Shown here piece by piece: positions 9,001 through 60,800 of a stretch of 64,000 bases of DNA. Position numbers and translations under genes: made by a program. Under the pieces are notes generated by a model. That model saw only the letters and a program-made list of their open reading frames with translations, was not told the origin of the DNA and ran no database searches. Source of the DNA: Callorhinchus milii (taxonomy: Eukaryota); contig NW_024704742.1 in NCBI RefSeq assembly GCF_018977255.1, forward strand, positions 67,768,001 through 67,832,000. The letters run 5' to 3'. How positions within the stretch are numbered: the stretch's first letter is position 1; every line of letters begins with the position of its first letter.

Positions 9001-12000
9001 CACACAGCAAACAAAGTTAATCCTAACAATAACCACTTTCTTTCCCCTCCCTCCAGTAAGAATCAGAATGAAGGTTAATATCATTGAACAAAATTATTGG
9101 GACTATACTGGATTTTGAAAAAAACCTAGAGAAATTTCATGAAATTAGAAGGGATTTGAGATTATTAGGTGATGAGATAGATGTGACTAATAGTCTACTG
9201 CTGTTGAACTTTGCTACTGAATATGCCTCTGTGGTGTGGTAATTGGCACAGGATGTTATAATAACTGGAACCTTTAATTTTGGGGTTGAATTTGTTAGAG
9301 AATGATGGTGCTGAGCAGTAAAATACTTTCTCATCACAAGGCCACCAATGATGTATCACCAGCCTCTGACAGATGCCTCTCCAGTTTCATCCAATAAGAA
9401 GCATTTTTTTGTTGAGAGTCTATTCCCACTATTAGGTGGAGGAAATAAGTCACTTTTATGCTAAAAATATTTTTTGAGGATTCCTAATGTTATGTTTCTG
9501 TCCTCCAGTTCAGGCTGGTAAATAACCTGGTTGCATCAATTTCATTCATTCCTCTGAATATTTTAAAACTTGGGCCATCTGCCATTCTCAATCTGTTTTC
9601 CAATACAAAACCAAGCAGAGTTACCATTGCGAAAGATTGAAATATTCATTTGCCACAGAGGTAGGATAGAAAAATGTTATAATAGCAGATTTTAAACAGC
9701 AAACTGTGCCACAGAAACATATTAATGCCACAAACATTAAAACAAATGCATGAATTTCTAGCTTCTTAATGTAAGAGAAAATTCTATTTCTTCAAGCATT
9801 TACAATGTTGCTTTAGCCTTGCTCTGCAAAAATATTTTACAAAGCTGAATCCAGCTGCACTGATATCCGGTGCACTTCCAGATAAAGAGTGTGGCTCACC
9901 TTCAAATAAAGACATTTGTTTGATATGTAACATAACCATTTTGTGCTCAATTGAGGTTAAGGAATCCAAAGTCAATATTTCAGTCAATGTGCAATTGAGC
10001 TTTGGACTTCCAAGTTGAGCTTCCACTCTCTAAAGCGAGTTAAATTAAAGTGCAGGCATACAATGTAGAACTTACTGAGATTTTTCCAACCAGGTTGTAC
10101 ATCTGGGGTGATGCTGTCCAGTTCTTTGCTGAACTCCTCCCTGGCCACAGATACAAGTTCACTGTATTGTGCAACGATTTTAGCTTCTGACTGAGCCCTC
10201 TGCACCTAAAAACAAAAAGTGTATCTGTCAGTACAAAGACAACTTCAGTTGTACAAATAGAGAAGTTGCATTTTTTTTTGAATGAAGACTTCAATAAAAC
10301 ATTGGTAATGGAGGTTAATAAAAAGTCATCTGAATTGTCGGTGGTTGGAAAACTAGCCCTGAACTACTGTTTAAGCTAACCAGGAACTGCATGTTCTGGG
10401 CCTGCGAACCTCACATCATAGCAACTGTGCATTTATAGGCAAACAGGGCAGTCACATTGCACAGAGCAACGTCCCTGAAACAAACATGAAGAACGCTGGG
10501 ACAAGGAGGGGGCAGGATTAGACTCAGTCGCAAATGTTTCCCGTCCACTAGCCTTTCATTGCCCAAGCTCATGCAATAAAAATGATCACTCGGGCAAAGT
10601 GCATCTATCACCTGTAGTTGTGATTCACAAACTCCAAGAGAGAACAATTTAATACCACCATATCACATTAAACATCTCAAAGTCCCTCACAAGTAATCAT
10701 TGTCAAGGATATTTATTGATTGTTCTTGAAGGCAAACACGGTATTGTTTGAGACAGCAAAGTTCCACAACAGCCATATCATGGGAACTTTTAAAATCCAC
10801 CTGAAGAACATCCCTGGCTACTTGGGTTTCACCCAAAAGATGGCACCTCAACCCTCCGAGTACTACACTGCAGAATCGGCCTCCACCATATCAAGTCCTG
10901 CCATGGGCTTCATAAGGAGAGAAAATTGAGCAGTATGTTTTTTTAAAAAATCATTAGTTATTACCTTTCTTACAACATCATCCAGATCCATCTGCATGTG
11001 GTGTAGATTCTCCTCTGCGGCCAATACCTGTGGTCTGACAGCAGAGATCTGAGTCTGTTTGGCCTCCTCGATCAGACCCCGGAGCTTCTCCAGTTCATCC
11101 CTAAAATTGAACAAATAGAAGAAATTAGAAATAGATCACGGTGACAAAACAAAAGCCACTTGTTCTTTTTCAGTTGGTGAAACTGGAGCATGGGCTGCTC
11201 AAATCTCAATAAAACATTTGTAATGGAGGCTAATAAAAAGTCATCTGGTTTGTCACTGTTGGAAACCTAGCCCTGGAACTACTTTTTAACCTAATCAGCA
11301 ACCAAATGTTATGGGCCTGGGAGCCTCACATCGTCGAGACATCTCAAAGCGCTTCACAGAATTTTACTGTGAAGTATAGCAACTGTGGATTTGTAGGCAA
11401 ATGAGGCAGCCAAATTGCAGGAGTGGAGGGGGGGTGGAGGATAAGATGAGTATCCATGGGGCTGAGCCTCCTTCAGGGTGACAGGCTTGCCAATGAAATG
11501 CTGGAAGCAAGTCAACTCTCTGTGGTGGTCTCAGTAGTCCTGTATCTGAGCCAGGTAGGTCCACAGGAGTCCAGGTCACTGCTGATGACAGACCTGCCAG
11601 CCTGGCACATTGACAGGACTTGGATGGGCAGACCAGTCACTGTGAGCAGGGATTCTTCTGACTCGACTGCTGTAGAGTGGACCTACCTGGAAAAGCAGTA
11701 GATAAGCTTGTTAGACCGTGCTTACAACGGCAAATCATGCAGTTTTAATAATAATAATCGTTAATAATCTTTGCATTTGATTTCGCCTCATCACGTTGTT
11801 GAGACATCTCAAAGTGCTTCACAGAATATACTGTGAAGTGACTTGACTGCGTTTGGTTTCAAGCTGATTAAATTCTAGCAGTTCCCTGACCCACACTCTG
11901 GTGTCCCAAAGCCTTGGTCATGCCAAACATGCACCTGATTAGATAAGTAGCTTGCATCCTTCCATAGGATACGCAAATAGCTCCAGACACAGAAATTTCC

Positions 12001-15000
12001 ATGTGTAGCCCAGCTGATCAGAAATAAAATATTCTGACAAGTGACTTCTCTGCTTAACTTTGCTTCCAGGGTTTTTAAGTAGTTACAATTCTAATTTCAA
12101 TCTTCATCACTTCTTGTTTTGTCTTTGTCTCTTTTACCATGAAGTGAAATGTTACCTGACAGACTGGAGACAGATTGTGTGTCGGCTCACACCCAAGAAA
12201 CTTGCCAAAATCTATAGAGCACCTTTGAATCTTAGTTAAGCAGCATAATCTTGGTTGACATAATCCTTGCGTTTGTCTTATCACGTCTTCGAGACGTCTT
12301 GAAGCGTTTCACAAAATATACTGTAAAATGAATTGACTATTTTTGTGGGTGAAACATGGCAGCCAATTGCACACAGCAGTGTCCCACAAACAGCCGTGGA
12401 TTGAATGACCCAATTTTTTTAAGGGATTATTACCCCCAGAAAAGCAATTTGCCAATCCACTAACAACCAGGTTCCTATTTACTGGCAAGGCAAGTGCTCT
12501 AACCACTAAGCTGGCTGTTGGGAAAGCAGTAGCTAGCCTTCATTTCTAACAGTGATTAATTCAATCTTTTAAAAGCTCTTAAAACAAACCCGAATAGAAA
12601 AAGAGACAACTTACTTGGCCTTCAGCAGTGAATTAGCTGCTCCATCTACAACCTTGCTACGGACAGTTAGTGCGTTCTCCAAGGCTCGCCACTGTTCAGA
12701 CTTCTTATCTATAGTCATCTGACAAAAGAGCAACCTAATAAATTACCGCGAGCAGGAGCTTCACACACATTTTCATAGATTTGTAGACAAGTGAAATCCT
12801 CTGAATCATTACTATTGGGTGAAACACCCAAGGGCTCTGAAGCACTCCCTCTGCCTGAAGGGCATTATATAAATGCAAATTGTTGATCTGTGACAACTAC
12901 ATTCATCACAAGCATCCTAGAAATTAGCACCAAACCTGGAACAAGTATATATACAAGTGAAGGCCTAAGTCTCTTTCTTCCCCTTTCTTAATATTCCTTT
13001 GGACCTTTACATTCACGTCACCCTCTGGTATTTCACCCAAGCAGCCAGTGTCCAGGCTTGAGCCTCAACTGCATGCATCAGCAGGCGATTTGATCCCGGA
13101 GTGACACCCCAAGCTCAATCCGGTCTTTAACCAACATCCACACACATTCAGGTCCATTAAGGTGTCACTTGATAGCAATTAGGAACAGGAACCCCATCTT
13201 ATTTTTCCTTTCCCTAATGCAGAGTGTTGAGGCTAATTCATAGCACCTTATTGCAGCCCCAGAGATTAGCCAACTCACAGCAAACCATGAATCAAACCTG
13301 GGACCTTCGCAATCTGTATGGCTTAGCTATTCACTGGATAAACTCCATTAGCCATGGGGAGTAAGTAGTCTAAAGAATCTTATCTAATAACCTCTAACTT
13401 CAAAAAACAGTGGAATCCCCTAAAACAGTTCTTAGGATGGATAAAATCCCAAGCCTCATTATGGCGAGACCCAATTGACGTCACCACTCACCTGACCGGT
13501 AATGTAACTGCATATGTGCGCAGAAACCCCAGCCAGCTCCCTTGGTGCATAAGAATGAATGGTATTTGACGCCTGCTTCAAAATGCATCGTTAGGCTTTA
13601 GCACTTCAAAATGAATAATCAGTGTGCTTTTCAATGCTACAATGTTGAACGTGATAGAGTATTGCTTTTTGCAACAGGACAAAAATCGCTTTCAATTGGC
13701 TTTTCGAGTTGAACGGCACAATGTTGGGATTTTCAAGTCAGGGAGGATAATTTCAGGGTTCCACATTACAATCAAAACTTGCTATAATGAAGTGTGTTAT
13801 AGCCGGGCTCGTGTAGGTGTTTTTTTGTAAAGATTTTACCTCAGAATTATCCATGGCTTCCTTTAACCTCTGGGCATGAGCATCAATGGCTTGCACTGCT
13901 GTGTCCTGAGTTTCAATGGCCTTGAGTGTTAACTGGGCACTTTTACCAAGGGCGTCCTCCAAAGATGATATTATTGCTTTGTGTTAAAAAAAAGACTATT
14001 TAAAATACAGCTTTACACACACACACAGTTTATTTTTAAAAAACAATACAAAATGTCCGGGAAAAATAGTCACCAAAATTCACTTGCCATCAATCTTGAC
14101 TTGCTCCTCTCGATCTTGTTGAGTTAGGCGTTTAGCAACCTCCTCGGGTGGACGTTCCTTTACTGCAGTGGGCTGGTCCTTTAAGGCATCGCAACCACAG
14201 CTCTCACCTTTGAACAACAAAAATAATAATAATTTGGTCACACAATCCAACGCTGTTTGTGTGACTCTGCTGTGCGCCACTGGCTGCCAAGTTTCGTCCA
14301 AAAAAAGTATATCAAACGCCAGGGTTATTATTATTATTAAAGTATTAATGTCTGAGTTTTCACCTTTCCAAACAGTGTACTCCTAACAACAGCCTAAATC
14401 TTCCATTAAAATCTGGACATTTAAACAAGATTGAGTAGTGGAGATTTTAACATGCTCGCTTCAAACCACTAACAATAATAACTTGTATAGCGCCCTTCAC
14501 ATCAAAAAGACATCCCAGAGGGCTGGACAGTCAGGGATTTGATCCAAGTAGGGTGTTGAGATCAGAGGGGTTGGAGGGCATGGAGAGGGTAGAGGTAGGA
14601 GGTTAGATGAATGTGCAGTCAAAGAGGAGGGTCTCGAGACGTGCTTTGAAGGAGGCAAGGGAGGGAGCAAAATGAAGGCACTGTGGGATGGAGTTACAAA
14701 GGGTGGGAGCAGAGAAACTGAAGGTCCAACCGCTGATGGTGAGGAGGGGTGGGGCGGGGACATGGAGCAGTCCAAGCCTGCTGAGCGGAGGCAGAGGACA
14801 GGTTGATATGGGATTAGCAGATCACAGAGGTAGGAAGCAGCAAGGCCTTGGAGGGACTTGAAAGCAAGGATGAGGATTTTGAACTCTATCCACTGGGGGA
14901 TGGTGAGACAGTAGTATCGGGCGAGAGTGGGAGTAATGGGGTCACGGAGCCTGGTGCAGGAGACGACGCGCTGCAGATTTCTGGATGAGATGAGTTCTGA

Positions 15001-33800: not shown

Positions 33801-36800
33801 TTTTTCTCTTCCCTCCTCCACTCCCCATAACTTATTAATTGTATTGCATTACGTAAGCTCAGTGTATAAGTTTTGTACTGTATTAATGTTGACTCCATTT
33901 TCTTCTATATACAGTGGATCCCCTCCCATTCCACGTTTCCAGCAATCAGTGAGAACACTCACCTATTTCGGTTTGCGTAGAGGAAAGCGGAAAACCGTCA
34001 AAGCTGTTGTGAAGCGGTTCCTGCGACTGCATTGCGGCCTCTGGGTGAGAAGGAAGGTAGGCATTTCCAGTGTTTCATAAGAGAGATTTGGGTGAAACAA
34101 AATCTATGGGCTCATTTGTTCTCTTATTTCCAGAATACCAATCCTACCATCTTCCCATTGTAGCCACATGGTGTTCTTTAAATGAGTCCAGTGTTTGAAC
34201 TCTTCCACCCTTCCCAGTAACGTATTCCATCTGTCAATTACCCATTGTGTAAAGAAATACTTTCTGGTATCAGCCTTAAATTTGACATTCACATCTTTGA
34301 ACGTGTGACCTCTTGTCCTCTTCTACCCTCAACTCCACGACCACCGATGTCCTGACAGACTGCCTGTCCGACATCGAGTCCTGGACGAGAGAGAACTTTC
34401 TTCAGTTCAACGTGCGCAAAACTGAGGCCCTCCTGATTGGCTCACGTCAGCGCCTCCGCACCTCAGGCGCTGACAGCATCAGCATCCAAGGCTGCCCTCT
34501 CCACCTCTCAAAGCCATCAGGAACCTTGGGGTTCTGTTCGACCCTGAGCTGTCCTTTCTCCCTCACATCCGCACCACAACTGGCACCGCCTTCCATCACA
34601 TCCGGAACATCGCCAGACTACAGCACTACCTCACCCCTCACGCCGCTGAAACTCTGGTCCACACCTTTATCACCTCAAGGCTGGACTATGGGAACTCTCT
34701 CCTCGCCGGCCTTCCCGCCACCTCCCTCCACAAGCTGCAGGTCATACAGAGCTCTGCAGCCCATGTACTGTCCCGCACCAGACTTCGCGACCACATCACT
34801 CCCACCCTCGCTCGCCTCCACTGGCTCCCCATCCCCCAGAGGATCGAATTCAACATCCTCATCCTCACCTACAAGGCCATTCACGGCCTTGCTCCCTCCT
34901 ACCTCTCCGACCTACTATCCCCTACCTACCTGCCTGTACCCTCCGTTCCTTTGGCTCCGGTCTGCTCCACATCCCCCGCCCTAACTGCCCTACCATCGGT
35001 GGCCGGGCCTTCAGCCTCTCAGCCCCGAGGCTCTGGAACTCCATCCCCCAGTGCCTTCGCCGCTTCCTCCCTTTCCTCCTTCAAGGCCGGTCTCAAGACC
35101 TTTCTCTTCAACCGTGCCTTCAGCTCCCCTCTCGACTCTCTACCCCCTCCTTGCTCCCTCCCTTCCCTCCCTTCACCATTTTCCCCCCCCTGCTCAGGTC
35201 CCGACCCAACTGTCCAGCGTCTTGGGACGTCCTCCCGACGTGAAAGGCTCTCTATAAATGCAATCTTGTTGTTGTTGTTGTCCTACTGTCTTTGTATACC
35301 AGAAAGCATGATTCTGGTCTTTGGTTCTCTATCCCATTTGGCATATTTTACACACCAAAAAGGTCCCTCCTTGAGACATCACTTTTCAAGGATGAAGACC
35401 CCTTGCTTATATGGTTGTTCTTTGTAGCTTAGTCCCTCTAAGGGATCTCCTCTGCACTGCCTCTATGGCCTGGATAGCTTTATAACATGACGGGGAATGG
35501 AATTAGCATTTGAAGTATTACATAATAACGCGAATACAAAAACGTGCATCATTTTACCTTTAGAAGGCCAAACATAATGAAAGATGTCTGAATCTTTGTA
35601 CTGTTATTTAGGTTCATCTTAAGGAGTTATATGGACAGAATTCCTTGGTACCAAGTCAGTATCCCTTTTCCCCTCCGCTGCAAAGTAGAACGTACGAATT
35701 TCTTCCTTTGATTGCTTCTTTGATTGCACCTGATGCAGACGCATTAGATGGCATCCAACTCCTTGAGTTAACATATGAATGAGACATGGTTACTGCATTT
35801 ATTTTGAGATTAAATTATGAGGATGTGTTTCATAAACTTGGTCTCTATTCACTTGAAGTTAGAAGGTTGAGGGGTGATCTGATTGAGGTTTTTAAGATAA
35901 TAAAGGGATTTGATAGGGTAGATACAGATAAACTATTTCCTCTGGTGGGGGAATCCAGAACGAGGGGCATCATTTTGAAATTAGAGCTAGGCAATTTAGG
36001 AGTGAAATTAGGTGGCAGGTTTTCACCCCAACGGTAGTGGAAATCTGAAACTCTCCCCCAAAAGGCAATGGATGCTGGATCCATTCAAATCTTCAAGACT
36101 AAGGTGTATCCACCTTATTTGTTAGGCCAGGGTAACAAGGGATACAGGGCAAGGGCTGGTAAATGGACTTGAGGTACAGATCAGCCATGACCTTATTGAA
36201 TGGTGGAACAGGCTCGAGGGGCTGAATGGCCTACTCCTGTTTCTATGAGGTCACTACTGTTTCTTCAGAAAGAATTTATTTTACCCTATCATTTTTTCAA
36301 AGATATCAGAAGCTTTGATTTAATCCTATTAGTTTCTTACATTATTACTGTCAATTGTTAATATTATTGTTGTTTAGAGCACTCGCCTTGCAAGCGAGAC
36401 AGAAAACAATGCAAACAAGCAAATTCACCTTCCTGACAAAACCAATTCCAAGTTCAATTCCAGGCAGGGCGAAACCTAAGAATCAGAAGAGCCAGCAAAA
36501 GTCTTGCAAAGAGAGTATGATAGGGTAGACTGGTGAATGGCAAATGATGTTCAATATAGATAATTTAAGGTACTGCATGTAGAAAGTAAAAGCAGAAGCC
36601 ACGTATATTTCCACGTGGAGTCCTGTAGCTCAATGGTTAGAGCACTGGCCTTGCAAGTGAGAGACCTGGGTTCAATTCCAGGCAGAGGGCGAAACCTTGG
36701 GCAAGTTTCCTTACTCCACACAGAGCCTAATAATAATCCCTCCAAAACCAAAAACAATAATAAATTGGTCATTTTCAATCTACGACTGTTTGTGGGACAT

Positions 36801-39179: not shown

Positions 39180-39677
39180 TTATCTTCTCCCACTCCACAC
39201 CCATTAACCCCCCACCACCCAATTGTTCCCAGTATCCTAACAGATTAACGTCAAGATTTCTTATTGAGATCTTCAAATCCCTCCAGGATCTGGTGTCACC
39301 GTGCTTTTCCTACATCCTGCTCAAATCCCCCAATGCTGGTCTACTGCTCAGGCCTCACTCTTTCTCCCCCACCCAACCCCCTCCCCACTTCCAGGTCCAC
39401 TATCGGTGACCAAGCCTTCATCCATTAGATTGTTCTCTGAAAGATTTGCCCCATGTCTTATATTTCATTTCTATGTAGAAGGTGTTTTAAAAAGTTTATC
39501 AAAGTTTAAGGAGTTGTTGATAATGGGGTAAATTTCCACATGTATGCGGATGACACCCAATTCTTATCTTTCTGCCTCCACCCTTGACTCCAGGACCACT
39601 GCTGTCCTGACAGAATGTCTGTCAGACATCAAGTCCTGGATGAGAGCGAACTTTCTACAATTGAACATAGGAGACCA
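39180..39677 (+). mobile_element. L2 fragments between the MRPL35 and REEP1 3' ends
   Basis: Decayed 3' piece (39180-39425) and a YADDTQ piece (39528-39677). Confidence 0.75.
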
Positions 39678-40055
39678 TTTCTGCAGTAAGCGATGATCTG
39701 ATCTCAGGGGGAATCACAATTAGCCTCAGCCAATCCTGAGCAAAAGGTGGAGGGAGTAGGAGGGAAATCGGCCAGACAACTAGCTCCTGATTGCTGTCCT
39801 GTGACCCTCTTTCCTCCCCATATATCACTGCAGAGTGGTTGGATCAAATGACATGTTTTTCTGTGCTGTGTGACTATGTAAATGGATGTGGGAAAGAGCA
39901 AATGATTGGGATTAGAGGGCAGGTACCGGCACAAGGATAGGCTCTAAGAGCTGGATGACCTCTGCAATGTCATTTGTATGAACAGAAGGTGAGTGGAAAC
40001 CTGCTGAGACCAGCATATGACTGAAACACGAGACGGCAGTTCATCTTTCAAGTCT

Positions 40056-40061
40056 TTTATT
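40056..40061 (-). terminator. Probable REEP1 poly(A) signal, implying a 3' UTR of about 3.3 kb
   Basis: tttatt on + (AATAAA on -) at the end of a repeat-poor AU-rich block (about 40050-41250). Confidence 0.55.
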
Positions 40062-43000
40062 ACAATGCCAAGAGTCCCTTGACAAATGTAGAAGACAACA
40101 ATCCTATAATTCATGCAGCACTCTGTGAACGCGATGCCCAGTGTTTACGGCAACACCAAGTTCCCTATATACAGTTCCCGTCAACACAACACAAAACGCG
40201 AATTAATACAACTATAAAGTGCTCTGGCCTGCCAGATTTGCCGTGGCTTTTTTTTGCCGAAAATTTCAAAGGAAACAAAATCTCACATGCATGGCAAAAA
40301 AAAATCATTTTTTTATAATATATAATAATTATAATGGAAATTAAGACAATCGCAATCTTCCTCAGTCATTTTGTAAAGGCATGAAACCAGTGCATCATCT
40401 CACAAAGAAACCACTTAAATAAATGAGTGAAACCTCACAGAAAATACAACTACAGTCCATTTCACAGATACATCATTCATGTACAGTTACACAAACAGTG
40501 TCTTTTTCTAGCACGGTTCTGCATTACAGTCGGACGACAGTAATCATCACACCAAAAAAATCTTTTCGCATTTTGCATTTGTCGTGTGTGTACAGGTAAA
40601 CAAGCTAGCACAGTGATTTAGTACTGGGAGATAAGGCAGCCCAAGTCAACCCACCTCTCTGACTGCCACAGTGTAAAACAAGTCAACTATAACCATGTTC
40701 TCAACAGCTAATATCATTAATATGGTTTGTAACAAATCTACATAATATTTTTCAATTACTGCCTGTTACATTAACCACCATTTCAGGTGGGTGGGATTGA
40801 AAATGCCAAACTGGCATTGGGTAATTGGACCCAACAACTGGATTTTGCACGATTTGCTGCCAAATTCAACACCCGAATACCGAAAAAAAAACACCACTTG
40901 CTTCCTGATCTTTTACCCTTCATCAGTCCAGAAATGCTCTTCAAAGCAAATTAAAAAATCAATGCCGTCAGCCTCTAAGCAAACACCACACTTTCAACCC
41001 AACCAATCCCCCCGCCCCCACCCCCCCCCCCCCCAACTCCAAACCCCTCCATTTTCAGCTACAACAAAAGCTTCCTTTCCAAATCCTACTGAAGCTACAG
41101 TTTCCAACATGTAGGATTCTTTCCCACACATGTATTTGTAAATCTTGCCCCAATGCAATAGAAACTGCTGACATTTTGTGGCTGTGACATGCTTTAGTAA
41201 TGAAAGTGCAGATGTTTCGTTACTTTACCATGTATGAATTCAAGAGCGTTCCAGGGGATTCGAGTGCTCACTAACCTGAGACACTAACCTGAGTGAGGTG
41301 TGCTATATAAATGCAAGTCGTTGTTGTTGAAGATGATGCAGTTTGCCAATCAGTATCCTGTGGGTTTTGAAATAATGATAATAATTATCATAATCCTTAT
41401 GTTGAATGTAAGGACTATGATTATTATTATCATTATTTCAAAGTGTGCAGTATTTGGCAAATTCTGAAACGCAGCCTTAAATTTCAAAGCTGTTTTTTTG
41501 TAAGTTTCTTTCTTTGAAATAGCTACCAATTAGTCCCACTCCCCCACTCTTACTTTTAGCCCGAGAAATGTTTCCTTTTCAAGTACCTATCCAATTCCCT
41601 TCTGAAAGCTACTATCGAATCTGCTTCCAAGAAAATCTAATTACACTTTCTTTATTTTGGTCTAATCAAAAGCCCACCAAAGTCCTCCAATGTTGTTGTG
41701 AGAGCTTCAGGACATTTTTCTCCTAAAATTAACATCTTGGAGTAGAAATTCCATCCGGGTCTTGACTTATTGTATTTTCTTTGCATTGCTGGGTGCGTAT
41801 TGGCTGCCTTGCACAAACAAAATATCCAGTCACTACACTGTACGGTAAATGCCATGAAGCACTTTAAGACTCCCTCCTGATGTGGAAGGCGCTACATCGA
41901 ATATAAGGTTTATGATTATTATCATTATTTCAAAGTGTGCAGTAACTGGCAAATTCTGAAACGCAGTCTTCAATTTCAAAGCTATTCTTCTGCAAGTTTC
42001 TTTCAAGAACTACGGAAAAACGGCTTCAGGGTTAAGACTTAAAAGTTTTACCTAACAAAATACGTGATCGCTACACTTTGCAGAAAATCCTGTGAAGTGC
42101 TTTGAGATGTCCTCCTGATGTAAGTATTGTTATAAATTCAACAATTTACCAAATTCTGGATGCTTGAAATGCTTAGAAAAGTTAAGTATAACAACAATAA
42201 TAATAATCCTTAATAATAATAGTCCTTGCATTTGATTTAGTGCCTTATCATGTCGTTGAAACATCTTAAAACGCTTCACAGCATATACTGTAAAGTGAAT
42301 TGACTGTATATTTCTGTGCGAAAGGAGGCAGCCAATTGCACACAGCAATATCCCACAAATAAATAATAACTTGCATTTATGTAACACCCTTCGTGTGAGG
42401 TAGTGTCTTGGAGTGCTTAGACTCAGGTTCTCCCCTTAGGTTTGAAAAGACAACTATTAAGAAACTGATTACCTGGTCAGTCTTTTTTGTTGTTGTTGTT
42501 ACAGCACTGTTGTTGTAGCACTCTCCATTGAAACAGCCTATTAGATCTCTAGCATGTGCATTAAGACAGGCAGGTGTACAGAATAGCTAGCCTAGCCGGT
42601 GGTCACCTTTTTGGAACAATTCCCACTCAACTTTATACCGCCCTGAAAAGCAAAGAAACCAGGAGACCGCAAATTCCACCTGCCCTGAGCATTGTCGGAC
42701 TATTGGAAAATTCGCCTGCNAAAAATACACAGTCACTACACTACATTTTGCAGCAAATCACTTTGAGGCATCCTGCCGACGAGGGGAAAAAAGCACTATA
42801 TCAAGTATAAGAATTATTATATTATTATTATAATAAAATCCCACAATTCAGTTTTAATTTGGATGCCGACATGAGAATTGGCAATTGCGGTCTTAAAGAC
42901 AAAACAGGTGCTACTGACGAAGACTAGGTGGAATTTGGTGCCTCTGGGTCTGGGTTACTTTATTTCAGGAGCCTCTCATGTGCTGGGAAAAGCCCTTTAC

Positions 43001-43339
43001 AGAAAGGGGAAAGGCTGTGTGAACATTACAAACACTTTAGCATTGATAAATACAATCCTTTTGCTCACTCATTGCCCCGAAACGCTGTGTTAAATACTGC
43101 GAAGCAGAAAAATGTTATATATATACTGTATATTAAAAAAAGATGATGCCTACAGATAATCTTATACTCATGTCAGTTGGCAGCTGAAAGACATCTGCAG
43201 CACAAGCCACTGCTGGCCTTTTCCCGGTGTTGCTCAGTTGGTGTGAATGTGTGTGTGTGTGTTTTTTTTGGCTCGTAAAGGTAGGGCATGGAACAGGAGG
43301 TCTAAACAAGGTCACTGCAGCCTTGGCGGTCATTCGGCA

Positions 43340-43411
43340 TCACATCGTCTCACTGTTGGACGTCGAGCTACATTTCCTTCTGGGAGGTGGTTTGGGGCGC
43401 CTAAGCTCTGC
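43340..43411 (-). CDS. REEP1: REEP1 last exon, dual frame: GRA* (stop 43401-43403) or [23 protein letters not shown] (stop 43340-43342)
   Basis: tttttacag| acceptor; both frames parallel the human short and long C-termini as I recall them. Confidence 0.85.
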   Translation of the reverse strand, partial: AELRRPKPPPRRKCSSTSNSETM

Positions 43412-45775
43412 CTGTAAAAATGTACAATAAAGGGTTACATCTACACATACCAATACCTTCACACCCCCTCCCTGTAAACATATTCACTTACCGATCAATT
43501 CCAGGCCTACCAATTCCTCCGTTCTTTCCCCCCGCACCCGCCCCGCCACCCACTCCGTAAAAATATACATGTTGCATATGAAAAATGTAGGCATATTGGT
43601 CAAATGTACTTGTACCAATTCTTCCCCACCCCCACCCCTCTCACCTACATCCCCCACCCCCGGAAAAATATACACATACTAATCAAATACACATGTACCA
43701 ATTCCTGCCCCCTCTCTGCATTTCCCCCTGTAACACTCTACACATATTGGTCAAATTCACATGAAAACAATCCATCACCCTCTCCATTTTCTTCCCCAAA
43801 AGAACAGGAGAAGGCCATTCAGCCCATCAAGCCCATCAAGCCTGATCCAGACGTCAAATCCTGGATGAGAGCTAAGTTTCTTCAGTTAAACGTCAACAAG
43901 ACCGAGGCTCTCCTGTTTGGCTCCCATCAGCGTCTCCACACCTCAGGCGCTGACAGCATCACCATCCATGGCTGCACACTCCACCTCACTGAGCCAGTCT
44001 GGAACCTTGGCGTCTTGTTTGACTCTCAACTATCCTTTCTGCCCCACATCCATGCCATGACCTGCTCTGCCTTCCCCCACCCAGGAACATCGCCCAGCTC
44101 TGCCACTGTCTCACTCCGCAGTTCGCCAAAACCCTCATATACACATTCATAACATCCAGGCTGGACTAGGCAAACTCCTTCTTTGTCAGTCTCCCCAATG
44201 CCTCCCTCCATAGGTTACAGATCATCCAGAACTCTGAAGCCTGTGTCTTTCCCACATCAGGCTCCGTGACCCTATTACCCCCATCCTCGTCCTACTCCAC
44301 TGGCTTCCCATCACACAGAGGATACAGTTCAAGATCCTGGTCCCCACCTTCAAAGCCCTCCATGGCCTCGTTCCCCCCTCCCTCTGCGACCTCATAACCC
44401 CCTACCAACCTGCCCACTTCATGACCCTTGTCTCGTCCACTCCACCATTGGCGGGTGGGCCTTCTGACACTCTGCCCCCACCCTCTGGAATTCCATCCCA
44501 CAGTCTCTTTGCCTCGCCCCCTCCCTTGCTTCCTTCAAGATCCATCTGAAGACCCTCCTCTTCGACCATGCTTTCGAGCACCCTCCGTCTCCCCCCCGCC
44601 CTCCACCACCCCAATCCCAACCCCCAGCTCGGGTCCGAAACATTGACTGTTCAGCACCTTGGGACATCCTCCCAAAGTGATAGGCACTATACAAATGTAA
44701 TCTTGTTGATCCGCCAGTTTATTAGATAATGGCATACCTTTCAATCCTATTTCCCTGCCTTTTCTCCATACTTCCTACCTATATTTACCTGTGTTCGACT
44801 ACAGAATCAGTCTTCCTATCCCAAACCCTTACCCTCAGTCATGTAGTATTCTCTGGCTCATAGTCATAATATTGAATGCAGCCCACCAGGCTCTGTGGTT
44901 GAGTCACCAGTGGGTGTTATGCTTGAGTGAGATGGCTTGGAAAGTCATCTTACCACCCCCCCACCCCCGTTCCACCCTTCCGCAGAATCCAAGTCAGGCT
45001 CAACGAAGATCAGTAGTGATGCCCTCTTCGAGAAGCTCCTCATTCAAACTGAGATCTCCTCCTTATCTCATATCCACCAAGTCGCAAGGTGACCCTGATG
45101 TAAAGAGGCAGGTTGATCTATTAGGTTTAAAAGGTGGCCGCCTGGACAAAAGTAATGCCGTTGGTTATCTAATTGCACATTCCTTGTGATGCCAGAATGT
45201 TGCAATTACTTTCTCTCTGCCTCTTATCTCACTTCACACAGCAGCCTTCCAACTTGAACCCATCCCATCGATCTTACTCTCTGCTCTAAACTAGTAACTC
45301 TGAAGGGAGGAAGGAGGTTCTCATTAGCTTTTATTTCTATTTTGCTGGCTTGGAATAGAAGAGGTTTAAGGGGGTGTTTTGCTGGGGAGGAGGGGTGGAA
45401 ATTCTGTCCTTTATCCTTCAAGAGGTTGATTGAGTGCTTTGAGATGTTATTCCCACATGAAATGCGCAATATGAGTGTAATTTGTCCTTGATTAAATAAG
45501 ATGGGTAATAGCCCCCACGAGGTAACAATAATAATCCTTGGATTTGATATAGCGTCTTATCACATTATTGAGACGCCTCAAACCCTTACTCTCTACTCTA
45601 AACTAGTAACTGCAGAGGGAAGGTGGAGGTTCTCATTAGCTAATAATAATATTCCTTACATTTGGTACAGCGCCTTTCATGTCAGGAGGATGCCGCAAAG
45701 CACATCACAGGATATATTGTAAAGTGCAGTGACTGTGTTTTGTGGGTGAACACAACAGCCAGTTTGCACACAGCA

Positions 45776-45820
<45 letters not shown>

Positions 45821-48800
45821 CCTTGCGTTTGATATGGTGCCTTATCACATCATTGAGAAGTCTCAAAGCTCTTCCTCTGGGCACTAGAGGGACAGTGACA
45901 TTGATTTACGTATAGCTTGGAAATCCCTTGGTAAACACACATTGTCAGAGTCACAACAGAGTTCTTAAGGTTCTTCACTCTTGAGTTTCCGCATGTGTCA
46001 GATAGACATCCATCTGACCCAAAACAAATTCCATAAGGGTTAATATCTAATTCACTCTAAATGTTATAATAGACATGCCTTCAATAGCCAGTTGCGGTAA
46101 TGCATCCCACATCTTGATATGACTCCAGTAAAATACTTTATGATTCCGATTGATAATTGCAACATTCTGGCATCACAAGGAATGTGCACGATAAGGTGCT
46201 ATTTGCAAATTCATCACCAGTGGAAATAATCTGTCACTATTAGAGGTGAACTGAAGAGATTTCTTATTTGGTCAGCTGGGTGGGACATCTGATACACGTG
46301 GAAACCCATCACAACGCTTAGACTAATAGGCATCTGTCTATGGAGTACACACTCATTACGCTTTACAACATATCATGGGAACAGCTTCGAGACGTGAAAG
46401 GTGCTGAGTCAAATGCCATGATTATTATTATTATTAAATAACAATCGGCCATCGCAAACCACAGCCATCCAGTAAATAACACAAGAAGAGACAAAAGGTC
46501 CCATTCTGGGGGAGGGGACAGTGACATACCTCGGACCGTGGTAACTTTTTCCTAAGTGGTTTCTGGGGGCGTTTGATCACGAGCTGCTCAACCTCATCAT
46601 CAGAGTTCTCTACTGCTCTAGCCTTATACTGCTCCTCCTCTGCCCTTTGACCCTGATCAATGTTTACTTCATCGCCTTTAAAGTCCAGTCACCCGTCTGA
46701 GCGGCCAAGAGAAGGAAACAGAGAGCGAATGAATGGGTTACCTTTGTCTCACTGCTCGTGGCTTAAGATGGTCAAAGTAAAGGAAGATGTAGTTATGTCA
46801 TGCTTGTGGGAAACACGGCGGTCAGTTATCGGATTTAACCTGTTGCTCATCCATTTCTGACATAATATTTATACAACAACAACTTGCATGCCCTGCACAC
46901 GGGGTGGCATCTACGAATGCTCTACAGAGCCGAGCCGGGGGAAGAGGTGACTGTAAGCGTGGTCGAAGAGGAAGGTCTAAAAGAGGGGAAGGAGGGGTAA
47001 AGCGGGGGGATTGAGGGAGAGAGGAACAACATTGCAAGCAAGAAGACCTGGGTTCAATTCCCAGGCAGGGCGAAACCTTAGGCAAATTTCACGCCTGTTT
47101 ACCTAGCAGTAAGTAGGAACTCAGTTGTTAGCTGGATCACTTTTCTGGGGGCAATAATCCCTTCAAAACAAATAATAATAATTTGGTCACTCAATCCACG
47201 ACTGTTTGTGGGACGTAATTGGCTGCCACATTCGGCCCATGAAATATACAGCCAATTCACTTTACAGTATATTATGTGAAGCGCTTTGAGACGTCTTGAA
47301 GACGTGATAAGGTGCTATTTCAAATGTAAGGTTTATTATTATTTTGCTGCTCTCGGGAATTCCACTTTGCGCTTTCGAAACAGAGTAGATCAGCGGAAAT
47401 CGCAATCAGATCTTTCCAACACAACAATAAATTGCATTTACAGTATGTAGCGCCTTTCATTTTGGGAATATGTCCCAAGGTGCCAGACAGTTAAGGGTTT
47501 GCACCCAAGCTGGAGGCTGGAGTCGAGAGGCATGGAGGGAAGGAAGGTAGTGGTGGGAGGATTTTCGAAGGCACAGTCAAAGAGCAAGGGCTTGAGATGG
47601 GCCTTGAAGGAGGCAAGGGAGGCGGTGAGGTGGAGGAGCTTTGGAATGAAGTTCCTAGGGTGGGAGTAGAAAGGCTAAAGGTCTGACCAGACAGAGAGTG
47701 GAACGCGGAACAGGCCAGTACCCGCTGAGTGGAGGCAGCAGCCAGGATGGAAGGGTTTTAGGAGGTCACCGAAGTAGGGTGGAGCAAGACTATGGAGAGC
47801 TTTCAAAGTGAGGAGAAGGATTTTAAACACGATCCGCTGGGGAACAGTAAGCCAGTGAAACCAGACGAGAGTGCTCCATGTCCCCCATCCCCTGAACCCT
47901 GCAAGCTAGACACCAGCGAAGAAAAATCACGAAAAGTGCCAGCAAAGGACTGAGCACCAGGATGCGATCGTTTGAGATGCTCAGTCTTTCAGGCTCATGA
48001 GGTTCACTAATTTATTTTTGTTAAAAAAATCCACAGGATCTGATTGCCTGTGTCACACTGTTATTTTCGATGTGTTTCGCCCACAAAATACACAGTCATT
48101 CTTCACTTTACAGTATATTCTGTGATCCACTTTGAGACGTCTCAATGATGTGATAAGGCACTATATCAAATGCAAGGATTATTATTATTATTTTTGGCTT
48201 TAATGTCTGCCAAATGATAAATTTGCTATGCTTGATAGTTAGCACTTTGAGACATCTCGACGCGACAAAGAGTTGCTATATAAAAAATAGCAAGTTCTTT
48301 AGTTACTTGCAAGGCAGCAATTAGCACCCATGAATGAATGCTATTTAAAACCATGTGTGAGGTTAGTGCTCATCCCACAGCAAAACAAATTATTAATTCG
48401 CAGCTACTGAGTGTAAGGAGAGTTATTTCAATGCACAGCCTGGTTTACTTTCTGAAGCGCAGTTTTCATGCCTCTCGGTGGGACTTACGCCAGCGGCGTT
48501 CCCAAGACGTGGACGGAGAATGAAGAGACGAAAGAGAAAGGAGAGAAGGAAAAGGCATTGAAGAGGCTTTGCAATCTCTGCGGTGAAACGGCACACGTAC
48601 AGCGCTTGCGTACAAATGCACTACACTCTTTTGGATGTCTCAAAAATTGTAAGTAAGAAGTATTGTTATATTACATAATATATAACTGTGTTTGCCTGGT
48701 TTAGTTAATTGTACTTTCACTTCTGAGGCAGAATCTTGTGGGTTCAAATCCTACGTCAAAAAATTGAGCTCACTGTCTAAGCTGACACTACAGTTGTCGG

Positions 48801-51800
48801 AGATGCCATCCTGCCGATGAGACATTAAACCAAGGTCCAGTCTGCCTATTCAGGAGGACACTAATGATCCCACGGGACTACTCAAAAAGAGAAGGGAGTT
48901 TCTCCCTTCCCTCTCCAGGAAACAATCCCCCAGATAAAATTGGTCACTCACTTCAGACAATACAATACAAAATTACATTTATATAGCATAATTCACATTG
49001 GGACAACGTCCAAGGTGCTGGGGTTTCATGGCTGTTTGTGGGAAATTAGTCATTCACTTCATGGCTGTATCTGGGACACTGCTATGTGCAAATTATGGCA
49101 ACCACGTTTGTCTACAAAATAGATGTTTACAACAACAAGATTACATTTGTATAGCACCTTTCATGTCGGGAGGATGTCCCAAGGCGCTGGTCAGTGTACA
49201 GCATTTCAGACCCGAGCTGGGGTCAGGGGGGGAGAAGGGAGGGGAGGGGAAGGGGGGTGGCCGATGGCATGGTCGAAGAGGAGGATTTTGAGGCGGGACT
49301 TGAAGGAGGCTAAGGAGGGGGCGAGGCAGAGTGATTGGGGGATGGAATTCCAGAGGTTGGGGGCAGAGTGGCTGAAGGCTCTCCCGCCAATGGTGGGGCG
49401 GGTGGGTCGAGGGACGTGGAGCAGGCCAGAGCCGGCTGAGCGGAGGGAGCGGGCGGGTTGGTAGGGGGTTAGGAGGTCGCAGAGGTAGGATGGGGCGAGG
49501 TCATGGAGGGCTTTGTAGGTGAGGACCAGGATCTTGAACTGGATCCTCTGAAGGACAGGTTGAGAGTGGGGGAGATGGGGTCACGGAGTTTGGTATGGGA
49601 GAGGACACGGGCTGAGGAGTTCTGGAGTTTACAGCAAAACCTATGAAGTGTTTTGCTGTTGTTATGATGGTGTTTTAGGGCATGTAGGCATGTATACAAT
49701 CTAAAGATTATTAATCATAATAATCTTTGTATTTGATATAGTACCTTATCCCATCGTCGAGATGTTTCAAAGTACTTTACAGGAAACAGTACTGTCAAAT
49801 GGATTGATTGTGTATTTTGTGGGCGAAACGTGGCACACAGTTTTGCACACAGCAATGTTCCACAAACGGTTGTGGAGTGAATGACCAATTTTATTTGGGT
49901 GATTTTTGACCAAGGCATTGGGAGAAACTCACTTCTCTTTTCAAATTGTGCCATGGGATCTTTAATGTCCACCTGAACAGGCAGACAGTTCAACGTCTTA
50001 ACCGAAGAACGGCACCTCCGACAATGCAACACCCCCTCAGCACTGCATTGGGGTGTCAACTTAGACTATGTGATTCCAAGTCCCGACGTGGGGCTTGAAC
50101 CCACACCTTCTGATTCAGAGACGAGAGTGCTACCACTGTGCCAGGCTGACACACAAAACATAATGTGTCCCTCGTTTTCTGTCACATGATATTATTATAA
50201 TTATTGGAAACAAAATGACAGCAAGAATTAATCCTCCAACTAACTCCCTGGTTCTTTACTGGATATGAAATAAAGAGACAGATAGGAGTCAGCCATTCAG
50301 TAAACTGTTTGAATGTGCACAATCCAGCATCATTTCCAGCCGCTGCTGAGCTCATTAATATCATTGCGGCAGAGGTTAAACAGAAGACATGCAGCCACTT
50401 CAAACTCAAGCCTAGTGAGGGCTCAAACCTGCGCTTGTCATATCAAAACCAACTAGTCACATCCTCCTTGGAGATAAGTGGGGTCTCCTTGGAGCTGAAC
50501 TGGCTCCAAGGTGACATGCTTGAATGGAATGAATTAATGTAGGAATCGAGCCAGTTCTCTGCGGGATAGAGTGGATAGAGGGATCCAGGGAGAGAGAGCA
50601 CATTCCATACCAACCATCTATCTCTGGGATTTCCATGTGTAGGTGGGATGAATGGAATTATCAGTTTGGTTTGGATACTCTTAAGCATGGGGATGGGTTT
50701 CCGCGTGTGTCAGACACCCGGTTAACCAAAAGAAACCTCAAGCCTGCTTTTACGCTTGTACAGTTAAAAGACTTGGGGGCTTGACGCAATAATTATAATT
50801 ATTCATATCGTCATATGGCGTGACTCTGTTAATGTCTCAGTTGATGTCTGGGGCTTGGAGGCTGCCTGTTTTCCTTTCAGATTGGAGACTTTCTGTGGCA
50901 GTTTCAAATTTGAGTTAAGCTTGCCAACCGGCGCTGAGATGCAGCATGGCTAATAACAGGCACAGATGGTTATGGGCCCAACCATTGTGATAAAGATGGT
51001 GGAGAGGGTAGGTGAGCAGGGCTGGCGGGGGGGGGAGTGTGGGTGGGGGTGTTCGCAGAAGTGATTTGAGACTTAGTTGCAATAGGACAGTGTTGGTCCC
51101 TTCAATGTCATCATTTGTCACTTGGGATATTATTGCATTGCAGCAACAAGGACCAGCAAGGTCAGTAGCTCTAACATTTGGGTACCTCAGCTGGGACTCC
51201 CCGACGTGCTCTGACTCACCTGTTATGATATTGAATATGATGCCGTTTCTAAAGGCTAGAGAGAGAGAAAAAAATAAAGACCATGAAAAAGAACGAGGGT
51301 GGGGGAATAAACAAATGAAAATGAAACAACAGATGTGCAAGTGGTGTCCTCTCTATGAATGTTTAGACGCCTTGGAGGGAGAAATTGCACTTAAGAAATC
51401 CCACTTGAGTCTAGATTTACTCTATTTTTGTAGCATTTCAGAGAGTGAAGAGTTTGGCAAATTGTTGAATTCAATCTTGACTTGTCAGGTCCTGCAGTGA
51501 ACCAAAATTAAGACAGTGGCTTCAAAATTAACTCTGTGTTTCAGAATGTACCATATTTTGCACATTCTGAAATACTAAGAAAACAAAGTAAATTTCAACC
51601 TGGGTGGAAATTCTACCCATTGACGATAATAATATCTACATTGCAACTGGCACTAACCAGATTCAGCAATGCCAAACACACTCAGTATCTACAGGATATT
51701 CGAAAATTTCTATGTAAGTTGGCATGAGATAAAGATGGGTGAGGCAATGGCTCACTTTCCCATTGGGTCAGAAGATTGTGGGATCAAGCCCCCATCCCCA

Positions 51801-54800
51801 CCAACACCACAACAACAACACATTTGAATAGCGCCTTTCACATCGAGAGGACGTCCCAAGATGCTGGAACAGACAGAGTTTCAGACCCGAGCTGGGAGTC
51901 GGGGTCAAGGAGGGTGGAGGGCAGGGGAGAAGCAGTGAGATTGAAAGCACGGTCGAAGAGGAGGGTCTTGAGATGGGTCTTGAAGGTGGCGAGGAAGGAG
52001 GCGAGGCAGAGGGACGTGGGAGTTCCAAAGGGTGGAGGCAGAGTTGCAGAAGGCTTGCCCGCCAATAGTGGAGCGAGTGAGGCGGGGGACGTGAAGCAGA
52101 CCGGAGCCTGCTGAGCAGAGGGAGTGAACAGGGTGGTAGGGGTTAGTAGATCGCAGAGGTAGGGGGGAGCAAGACCATGGAGGGCACCACACCCACATTG
52201 AGACATCGAGTTCACATTCCAGTGCAATGCCGGTGGGGTGGTGGGCGGGTGGCGGGGGTTGCATTGCTGGAGGTGACATCCTTCAGATGCCACCTACAGC
52301 CAAGGTCCTGACTGCCTGTTCTACAGGGAGATGAAAATATCCCACAACACTATAGCAAGATAAAATGGCCCAACCAGTCAGAGTCCTGGCTGACAATCCC
52401 CCAGAGAAAAGAGGAAGGAGTTTTGTCTCCTGGACAACTATCTTCCAAGTTAAATCGATTATTAACCTCATCGCGACTACCACATTAGCCTCCAAAAAAT
52501 CAAGCACTTAACTCCAATGACAGTGTTTTGTGTCTGCTGGGGTACAACACGCTACAAAAAAGCAAGTTCCTTCTTTGCAAACAAGCCACCCAGCAGACTG
52601 TTATTGTTATTTCACTTAATGGCTTCTCCAACACCCCAGCCTTGTCTCTGCCGCCCAGACAGCTCTTGTGAACAACACCAAACTTTATGCATTATAACAA
52701 ATTGTATTTGTGCGGCTTGGAAATGGGCCACTGGGCCCAACATCCCTCACGTCGGGAGGACGTGTCAAGGAATAAAGATTAAGGTCAAAATGGTAGTATT
52801 CCTAAACAACAACAATTTTACATTTATACAGCGCCTTTCATATCAGGAGGCCGTCTCAAAGCACTTTGCACTGTCCCTGAGAGAGACTGAGGGAGGAGGG
52901 AGCTTGAGATGAGAGTTGAGGGGCAGGAGTTGGGAGGGGAAAGATGACCAAAAGCTCAGTCAAAGAGGTCGCTCCTGAGACAGAGAAAAGAGGAAGGAGT
53001 TTTGTCTTCTGGCCAACTATCTTCTGGGTTAAATAAGTCATTCACCTCACTGGTGCCGACAGGACCTTGCTTTATGTTCAAAATGGCTGCCGCCTGTGGT
53101 TGCAGTATACGCAGCTGTGTGACAATGATTACTTGTAAGGTTCCGGTTAAAATAAAATTGCAAATTCTTTCTTCTTTTCTTCAAGCCTGGAATCTGACTT
53201 GCTCTCTGTGGAGCTGGACATCCCGAAGTATTCTTTGCTATCTCGCCCCCTCCTTCCTCCACGTGTCAGTCAAATGTCACATCAGTCAGGCTGCGTACTC
53301 CAGAATTTCCACCTTGTCCTAGTGTGTAAGATCACTGGACCCAAAATTCCACCTAGCCTTAGCCTATAAGATCACCAGTCTCAAAATTCCAACTAGTCTT
53401 AGCCGGTAGGATTACTGTACCCGAAATTCCACCTAGTCTTAGCCTGCACACCCATTGAAGAATTGAAAACAATTTACCCGCAATTTTCTTGGTACTTTTA
53501 ATATCAAAATGTTAATGATGTGTCAGATAACTGAGCTAAGGGTGGGCAGTTCCGGACCTCATTTGTGTGTCCCCGTGAAGGTTTCCAAGCTTACCCGAGT
53601 TGTCGATGGTCTCTGTGATGTGGCGGGGGGCACTCTGCGTGGGAGCGTGGGCACTGCCTATCCTTGTCGTGGGGCCGTCTTCACCTCGGATTGAGGTCAG
53701 GTCCTGCATGCTGAAGCTCCTCAGCCTCTCCGACAGAGCCCCCTGTCCCTGCAACACAGCAAAACAGCTTACCTTTACCACAGAGTGCATTAACCATGGC
53801 CCTTAATAGAAGGGACTATTTATAGCAGGGTTGTCCAACCTTTTAGCTGCTGAGGGCCGAATGCCTGATTTGAGAAATGTCCATGGGCCTCATAGACAAT
53901 ATTTGATCCTGATTGACCGGTCTCATTGCTGGGCAACGCCTGAGCCCCCAGTGACCATCTCCTGATTGGCTCGGTGGCCCCCCACGAGCCACCTGTTGGA
54001 TTTATACAGTGTCCTGAGAAAAAGGTGGGGTGTCTGTCTGTCTGACTGTCTGTCAGTAACAGACAGCTCTGTGCAGGAGGCTATCACAGCAAAGATCCTC
54101 TGCCTCTCAAAACACTGGTTTCAAAATCACTGCGGGTCATGCCGGCTCCCAAACACTCTCCCACACATATGGTGGGGTCCAACGTTGTTTTATTCCTAAA
54201 CTCATTTGCCGACAATAATTAAGAGACTGTCCAGATATTCTGAGTCCTTTTAAACCTGTCCTGAATAAGAGGTTTGGGACTGAATGGTCAGAGCACCATT
54301 AATTGTCACCGGAGTTAAATATCACAGCATTTGCGATCCGTGATGTGTTAATTAAACAATATCTTGGGATACAATATATAGTTTGGGACATGTCATGTGC
54401 ATGTGACTGCCAGGATGGTGGAAGGCAAATTGAATGAACCTTGGTCTTCCTTCACATAGCGATTCCTATGTTCTTATGTTCTAATTATCACCAGCGTTGT
54501 CTGTCATAGCATTGTTAATTGTCATCAGTGTTAAGTATAACAGCATCGCAACCGTGACTGAACACTTCTCCCTCACCCTCTCTCCATCCCCCCCACCCCT
54601 CCAGTCACCCTCTGCCATCAAACTCATTGCTGCCCCCCTCCCTCCACCATGTCCCCTCTCCCCATGGACTTCAGAAAAATGCTTTTCACAGCCAATTTGG
54701 TCACCATTTTTTTAAAGCAGCTTTTTATTTTACCGCATTATTTATAATGTTACTTTTACCAAAATGATTTTTGAGGCCATTATTAGGCAAAGTTGTTCGA

Positions 54801-57800: not shown

Positions 57801-60800
57801 ATCGTCTTATTAACAGTCCCATTTGCACCAATGACTGTAGGAACTATGTTTAATATATTTCTTAATCTGCTCTAGTTCCTTATTTCTTATGTTCTAATCA
57901 CTTTTTTATTATATTATTATTATCTCCTCTAGGTGTATCCAGAAAAAATTTACAGAATTGGAGAATGTTACAGCACCAAAAGAGGTTGTCAGACCCATCA
58001 AATCTATCAAATACTAGTGCTTTTTTCCATATGACCCACTTAGTCTAATTCCTCACAAAATTCCCTTGCAGTTCCCAACCCCAGCTCGCCAACCCAGCAC
58101 TGTGAAGCAATTTGAGATCTCCTAATGTGCAAGGCGCTGTATCAATGTAAATTGTGTTGCATCAACCGCCAATGGTCTCTTGTCTTCTCTGACGCCATTT
58201 TGGGGTTAACATCTTTAATTTGTGGTATCTCTTAATAAGCAATATACAGCGAGTTGTTCGGATCTGGAATGCATTGCCTGAAAGGGTGGTGCGAGCTGAC
58301 TCGATAACAACTTTCAAGAGAGAAGTCAATAGATATTTGGGGAGGGCAAGTTTGCAGGGATATGGGGAGAGAACGGGGGAGTGGGATTAATATGGATAGC
58401 TCTTCCAAAGAGCCGGCACAGACACGTTGGGCCGAATGGCCTCCTTCTGTGCTGTGATTCTGTGCTATGATTCTATGATTCAATCCAGTAGAAATTCCCG
58501 TCGACCAGCAGGAACTAAGCTCCAAAATGCAGATGGCGCCAGAGTGGAGATCCCGTGAGTTGGGGGCTGACGTGACCTTTGGTTACTGGAAGGAATCCTA
58601 ATTTGCATAACTTGTAATTTTTTATTAAGAAATAGCCCGAAATTAGACCCGTGGTTTGTTTCAGATACAAAAGGGCAAAGATGCTGAGCAAGTTATCAGG
58701 TGCAAGGATTATTATTATTTGTTAAAATGCAAGACATCCTGATACAAAGTGTGGGGGGTTGGTCTATAGTAGTGTTAGTAGCAGTACATTTGGGATTACC
58801 TGCCCCTCTGTACTCTCTTCAGACAGGGTTACGTTGAGAAAGGGAGACACCTAGTATAGAAAAAGGGGTTATGAAATCCTGTGAAAGCCTGCTGTTCGCA
58901 ATACTGTACGTTCTTTTATGTGACATGATCACAACACAGAGACCTGAAATTTCCCCCGCTCTTAGCCTTACAGCCATCGTTTTCAAATCTAAGGTCAGGC
59001 AGAACATTAAGAAAAATCTTCAATTTGTGCTCAAATCAGAAGCTAGGTTTCTGCAGTTTTCTTACAAATAATTGAGCCAGTCTGGAGGGGGAGGAAAGGA
59101 GGGAGGGAGGAGGGGTTTAACAGATGGTGCTATCGTAGGGAAATTCCTTTATAAAAGTGGGGAACCAATAAATTGGTGGAAGCGTTCCATTCATCGTCAC
59201 GGATATCTGTGGATTGATGAGCTACTGTGAAAATAATGACCAGGTCTTCAATAATAATACTTGCATTTAATATGGCGGCTTATCATGTCGTTGAGTCATC
59301 TCAAAGCGCTCCACAGAATATGCTGTAAAGTGAATTGACTGTATAATTAGTGAGCGAAACGCAGCCGCCAATTGCGCACAGTAGTGTCCCACAAACAGTC
59401 ATGGATTGAGTGACCAAATCATTATTATTATTGAAGAGACTATTATTGTGGATTCAAGACCCACATCTGGACTTGGAATCACCAGATGACACTGCAATGC
59501 AGTGCTGGGCGTCTGTTACATTGTGGGAGATGCTGTACTTCGGATGAGATGTTAAATCGAGGTTCCATCTGCCTGTTTAGGCAGACATAAAACATCCCAT
59601 TGCACTATTTGAAAAGTGAAGGGAATTTCTCTCTCCTGATGTCCTGACCAACAAATCCCCCAAATAAAATTGGTCACTTGTTTCATGGCTGTTTTGTAGG
59701 ACATTGCTGTGCTCAATTGTGCTGCTGCATTGGCCTACAAATACACAGTCACTCCATTTCACTGTAAATCTTGTGAACCGCTTTGAGACGTCCTTCCGAC
59801 GTGATAAGGTGCTACACAAATGCAAAGATTATTATTACTCTTATTCTGCCATGTTTGCAGCAGAGTCAGACTGTGGGCTGGGGTCCAGCAGGAAGGCAAG
59901 GCTGGCAATCGGTGACCGTTACCTTGGCAGCGGCTGTCACCGCGGCGCTGGCTGCCACATTCAATCCCCGTCTCCCAAACTGCACCACCGCTTCATAGCT
60001 ACGATCTTTGGCTTGGCTCAGGTACTCGTCAATCTCCTGCAAGACAGGAAATAAAGGGGAGCAGGTCAGGTGGATATTTTATAATCCTCACACTGGGTAT
60101 CACACCTGGAACACGTAGAGTTCCTGTAGAGTTTTGATTAGAGCACTCGCCTCGATTCCCAGGCAGGGCGAAACTTCAGGCAAGTTTCCTTACTCCACAA
60201 GCCTCTGTTTCCCCAGCAATAATTAGCAACCCGGTTGTTCGTCGATTAGCAGAACGCTTTCCAGGAGTAGTAAACCCTTAAAAAAAGCTCAATCCACGAC
60301 TGTTTGTAGGACACTGTTGTGCGTAATTGGCTGCCGGGTTTCACCCACAAAATACACAGTCAATTCACTTTACAGTATATTCTGTGAAGCGCTTTGAAAT
60401 GTCTCAATGGCATGATGAGGAGCTATATCAAATGCAAGGATCATTATTATGCAGAAATGTCTCAACATGCTTACTAATGATAATAGTAATAACTATTTTT
60501 ATTTCTGGCATTTAACTCTGTTTTAAGTACTAAGAGTACTCTTCTTATATATAGAAACAATTTTCAATTTCATGACTTTATGCTCCATTCCATGACGTTC
60601 ATCTGTTCCAAAATTAACAATAATAACAAGAATAATACTCATACTTGAGACAGTGCCTATAACACTCAACCATCTCAAGTATTTTGCACGTAATTTCTGT
60701 ATATTTGTGTAAATATGTAGACAATATAGTGACTGTATATTTGTAGGTAAACCCGGCAGCCACTTGGCACACCGCAATGTCCCACTAACTGCCAAGTAGT

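Follow-up and report, generated by a model that had tools for sequence, protein, structure and literature searches.

In AS-NMD, alternative 3′ splice sites with close competing AGs can bring in a premature stop that lies >55 nt before the last junction. Use of the downstream AG is related to branch points that lie past the upstream AG or too near it, and the distance from a branch point to the AG used is given as about 8 nt at minimum and usually 19-35 nt (PMC5378181). Stop codon readthrough in vertebrates is described for UGA-CUAG contexts in AQP4, MAPK10, OPRK1 and OPRL1, with UGA-CUA as the conserved core (PMC4132726, sections on this motif). In the main text of a deep scan of the motif, every variant active in readthrough has CU at +1/+2, and of 765 changes made to CUAG (+1 to +4) all but one reduced readthrough (764 of 765), the wild type reaching 0.5-1.9%; CUGG is not named there (bioRxiv 10.64898/2026.07.14.738498).

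For Callorhinchus milii (elephant shark), RefSeq holds predicted REEP1 models that represent exactly the products of the two acceptors considered here: X1 and X2 (XP_042199402.1, XP_042199405.1) for one, and X4 (XP_042199407.1) for the other. Both tandem-acceptor products of REEP1 are thus already modelled. As predictions, the models carry no information on isoform ratio, on mechanism or on a connection with REEP2.

Comparison of C. milii REEP1 with these systems shows that, like the AS-NMD sites, it has two close AGs and a stop that precedes the last junction by more than 55 nt; its NMD sensitivity, regulation and branch point are putative. With the readthrough genes it shares a UGA followed by CU, but the third base is G rather than A, and the stop is spliced out of the contigs seen and lies outside the frame of the orthologous proteins. 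A further likeness is found in the paralogue REEP2, in which the AGs are likewise 21 nt apart before a paralogous exon entered in phase 1, with a TRAC motif at −15 (−14 in REEP1). In REEP2 the spacer has an open frame worth seven extra residues, and sharks and rays have annotated forms of both kinds; in REEP1 it bears a stop and is included in no orthologous protein.

We consider it probable (about 0.8) that REEP1 exon 8 has two acceptors 21 nt apart, of which the contigs use the one with exon start 46675, leaving the TGA in the intron and yielding the long protein, while the one with exon start 46696 is likely a minor site, left over in decayed form from a tandem acceptor that REEP2 also has. 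The case is one of ordinary alternative splicing, and readthrough is not needed.

The REEP1 locus and its two exon 8 acceptors

The window, the whole stretch of 64,000 nucleotides analysed, contains REEP1 on the minus strand. Exon 6 gave a database match of 100% identity to C. milii REEP1, the exons match the annotated gene (PF03134 family), and RefSeq isoform X1 aligns exon by exon to the window. The stretch is single-copy (1 DNA match), and no second or intronless REEP1 copy was found by this match. Open frames at about 2100-14400 (minus strand) and about 33900-34080 (plus strand) are exon-like and presumably belong to IMMT and MRPL35, which they resemble and which are the neighbours of REEP1 in human. 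Between REEP1 exons 5 and 6 lies a 51-nt cassette exon (58800-58850, minus strand; 17 residues), which is present in RefSeq X1, X3, X4 and X5 and, judged by length, absent from the 274-aa X2.

On the minus strand, exon 6 (53595..53748) ends in phase 1 and is followed by exon 7, a 36-nt cassette (51220..51255), exon 8 (46530..46675 as spliced; 146 nt, phase 1 in and phase 0 out) and the coding part of the last exon (43340..43411). Inclusion of exon 8 puts the last exon into its long frame; entry into the last exon in phase 1 gives three residues and then a stop. Exon 7 encodes a hydrophobic 12-mer that is nearly invariant in sharks and rays. A second AG inside exon 7 was rejected as an acceptor, as the sequence read from it soon meets stops.

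The preliminary description, made from the sequence alone, had placed the start of exon 8 at 46696, and the elements that it listed are all present. Behind the AG at 46697..46698 (minus strand), phase-1 entry at 46696 reads D-G-stop, with the TGA at 46689..46691 followed by CTGG and then by 159 nt, or 53 open codons, up to a GT donor after 46530 in phase 0. Entry at 46696 in phase 0 or phase 2 soon meets stops, as read from the sequence. A second AG (46676..46677) lies 21 nt downstream of the first, in frame, and gives the exon start 46675. The spacer between the two acceptors (46676..46696) is intronic in the contigs seen and exonic in RefSeq model X4. Two close AGs with one shared exon end have the layout of a tandem 3′ splice site.

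Contigs of four runs from two studies, presumed to be RNA, were aligned to 43000-53900; their joints remove introns exactly. Joints from exon 6 (at 53595) to exon 7 and from exon 7 to exon 8 (51220 to 46675), with GT-AG ends, were present in runs X2, X3 and X4 (three of the four runs, both studies), and the joint from 46530 to 43411 was present in runs X1 and X3. The acceptor with exon start 46675 is used, and its joint excises the TGA from the spliced contigs. No joint at 46696 was present among the 15 joints listed of 422, and an unspliced contig of run X3 traverses 46696 unbroken. Because contigs lose minor variants and NMD would further deplete a 46696 product, the share of splicing to 46696 may exceed its appearance here. 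The contig joints suggest that 46675 is the main path, and they are compatible with some use of 46696.

In RefSeq models X1 and X2, exon 7 runs directly into GDEVN at 46675 and the long protein follows. Model X4 encodes 221 aa, enters at 46696 and ends in NIIT-DG at the TGA; it is nearly the same as the 222-aa short form. Exon 8 is skipped in RefSeq X3 and X5. The evidence for use of 46675 comes from the contigs, and that for 46696 only from the predicted model X4.

Unspliced contigs from two studies (run X1, piece 46593-47063; run X3, piece 46648-47090) cross the TGA with no difference listed at 46689-46691. The TGA is genuine and not an assembly error. A synonymous C/T difference in exon 8 at 46592, present in contigs of runs X1 and X3, is likely an allele. 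The open frame after the TGA is identical to RefSeq X1 and is real coding sequence.

The preliminary description had also called the upstream acceptor strong and the downstream one weak, and had offered a switch between the two as one explanation. The contrast in sequence holds, with 14 pyrimidines in the 18-nt stretch upstream of the first AG and 7 upstream of the second, and the switch has support, in that 46675 is used in contigs and 46696 in RefSeq X4. The roles assigned to the two sites are reversed: 46675 is the working and conserved exon start, and so no stop stands at the head of the exon.

Orthologous proteins and the REEP2 parallel

We compared 83 chondrichthyan REEP1 proteins, comprising 45 with exon 8, 19 short forms, 5 with direct entry into the long frame of the last exon, and 14 with other tails. 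The 45 exon-8 proteins come from 20 species: C. milii contributes 2, and 19 species of sharks and rays the other 43. In all 45, exactly two residues separate the upstream exon from EVNI, so that none includes the seven spacer codons. All 45 start the exon at the position of 46675, which is therefore a start common to chimaeras and elasmobranchs. These two groups split roughly 400 million years ago. The 53 codons, used on their own as a protein query, gave 2 candidates, neither of which was scored, though such proteins exist, and no bony-fish REEP1 was present among the 120 matches listed of 261.

The five shark and ray models that reach the long frame of the last exon without exon 8 (P0035, P0135, P0155, P0157, P0160) would be consistent with a further acceptor lying a few bases inside it (43340-43411, minus strand).

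In C. milii REEP2, a CAG is followed by 21 nt, a second CAG and the paralogous exon with its phase-0 donor (8049-8069 of locus L002, G000:C13). The spacer is open in frame, and RefSeq annotates isoforms that differ by seven residues, X1 of 268 aa (XP_007889537.1) and X2 of 261 aa (XP_007889539.1). Among 41 chondrichthyan REEP2 proteins, the insert was present in 27, absent from 10 and unparsed in 4, and isoforms with and without the seven residues were found in the chimaera as well as in sharks and rays. A REEP2 insert of 6-7 residues is likewise present or absent at this place in turtles, lizards and birds; these inserts, known here from protein, presumably also reflect tandem acceptors.

As REEP2 has the same 21-nt acceptor pair, the upstream site of REEP1 is likely a decayed ancestral tandem acceptor. 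The simplest reading is that there was one ancestral pair, which is coding in REEP2 and stop-bearing in REEP1. This reading is likely, the grounds for it being spacing and position only; compared over 19 bases, the two spacers show no significant similarity (shuffle p = 0.17).

A REEP3-like locus (L004, G000:C7) carries a candidate paralogous exon about 3.4 kb past exon 6, with an SDDE acidic motif and a phase-0 donor. It has one clear acceptor, and does not settle the ancestral state. No clear match to the paralogous exon was found at C28, in the REEP3/REEP4-like loci.

Acceptor choice and alternative readings

The choice between the two AGs may be set by the branch point. Branch-like motifs, which are predicted positions, occur at −42 and −34 relative to the upstream exon start, and at −23 and −14 (TGAC, with the TGA as its core) relative to the downstream one; the REEP2 counterpart is TAAC at −15. 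The downstream AG would likely win with a branch point located at or beyond the upstream AG, either at the A of that AG (−23) or at the TGAC (−14), and the upstream AG would likely win when one of the farther branch points (−34 or −42) is used. If branch choice sets the acceptor, as seems likely, this would account for the success of the AG whose pyrimidine tract is poorer. Two features speak against this account: the tract of the downstream AG is poor (7/18), and −14 falls short of the usual 19-35 nt.

Choice of the upstream AG would give the 221-aa protein ending in DG that is annotated as RefSeq X4. A transcript becomes a target of NMD when its premature stop precedes the last junction by more than 50-55 nt. 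The 46696 transcript is predicted to be such a target, because its stop lies 159 nt before that junction; if translated, it would nearly equal the short isoform.

The preliminary description had proposed programmed readthrough. In this reading, UGA-CUGG in 46696-spliced transcripts would be read to give long REEP1 with seven additional residues. The UGA is followed by CU and the frame downstream is open, but conservation of that frame needs no readthrough, since it is already used through 46675. The seven residues occur in none of the 45 chondrichthyan exon-8 proteins (none of the 43 from sharks and rays), a comparison made at the protein level. The stop is excised from the spliced contigs and so is not kept in the mRNA that would encode the extension, and the context has no CUA core. 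Its likeness to the readthrough motif, which had been taken as a hint, is no more than chance gives: among 217 minus-strand TGA triplets between exons 6 and 9, the next base is C in 57 and the next two are CT in 18, and 12 precede a 4-mer within one mismatch of CTAG. Programmed readthrough is very improbable; a low basal leak on the minor 46696 transcript is possible, and would explain nothing beyond splicing. Reading of the UGA as selenocysteine, for which the in-frame UGA speaks on its own, deserves far less credence still. The orthologues are without the segment and have no Cys or Sec here, and no SECIS was present among 9 Rfam matches (E up to 10) in 39500-47000, all of them below gathering scores. 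As improbable as readthrough is the proposal that the exon truly starts at 46696 and that the TGA has taken the place of a Trp codon, through a lineage-specific nonsense allele or through an assembly error. The 46696 acceptor is the stronger-looking by sequence, and because the matching 21 nt of REEP2 are open, an open frame may have been lost here long ago. A recent nonsense allele is refuted by the contig joints and the orthologous proteins: long REEP1 is spliced intact, and all 43 shark and ray proteins (19 species) start the exon at the 46675 position, without the spacer codons. An assembly error is at odds with the unchanged TGA in two studies. The Trp of amniote REEP1, which had been suggested as the counterpart of the stop, lies in a different exon, namely in a 12-residue cassette that is the counterpart of exon 7 (51255-51220); of the 23 proteins matched, only 2 have Trp there, while 9 have Arg and 12 have Val. 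This cassette can be skipped (P0064, P0120) or joined directly to the last exon (P0053, P0107). It has the same slot and length as exon 7 of C. milii, but is Cys-rich and a different peptide.

A different role for the upstream acceptor would be that of a selected and regulated poison switch across cartilaginous fishes, with NMD tuning the output of long REEP1; its choice would terminate the protein after two residues of the exon. Three shark and ray RefSeq models stop two residues past the same junction, in AG (thorny skate, sawfish) or AC (white shark), to be compared with DG in C. milii. The models are XP_032890871.1, XP_051897698.1 and the X6 model of white shark. Of 11 distinct elasmobranch tails left unexplained, these account for 3 (post hoc binomial p about 0.011; 0.07 with the two AG tails treated as one). 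The tails, known here from protein, may arise from this upstream acceptor, and it would then be a conserved poison site, or they may derive from other exons. Among the proteins fetched, which are not all the models of these species, 16 of the 19 elasmobranch exon-8 species have no such tail. The upstream site keeps a good pyrimidine tract (14/18), but this tract may merely serve the downstream AG. On balance we regard a conserved poison switch as unlikely, though less so than readthrough or a nonsense allele. A fuller version joins it to the REEP2 parallel: an ancestral coding tandem acceptor, giving forms with and without seven residues and still coding in REEP2, would have become the REEP1 poison acceptor after duplication. 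It would have persisted in chimaeras, sharks and rays as a regulated switch, its stop also serving as the branch point by which the productive AG is selected. This version is doubtful to a similar degree. A decayed tandem remnant of minor use remains our preferred reading of the upstream site.

Literature and meaning

REEP1 and REEP2 are both named as spastic-paraplegia genes in a passage of PMC11390104. In the open-access literature, nothing was found on REEP1 readthrough, on REEP1 exon isoforms or alternative splicing, or on the evolution of splicing between REEP1 and REEP2, and isoforms are not mentioned in the accessible part of PMC9959426. The REEP2 parallel is a minor evolutionary point, of which no prior account was found in that literature.

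The REEP1 stop is not a new case of readthrough. The main outcome is a correction: an in-frame stop near the start of an exon can be an artefact of choosing the stronger-looking of two AGs. A modest by-product is that REEP1 and REEP2 have in common an acceptor pair 21 nt apart, whose spacer is coding in one of the paralogues and carries a stop in the other. The pair constitutes a small natural test of how branch-point position relates to AG choice, and of the loss or repurposing of a splice variant after gene duplication.
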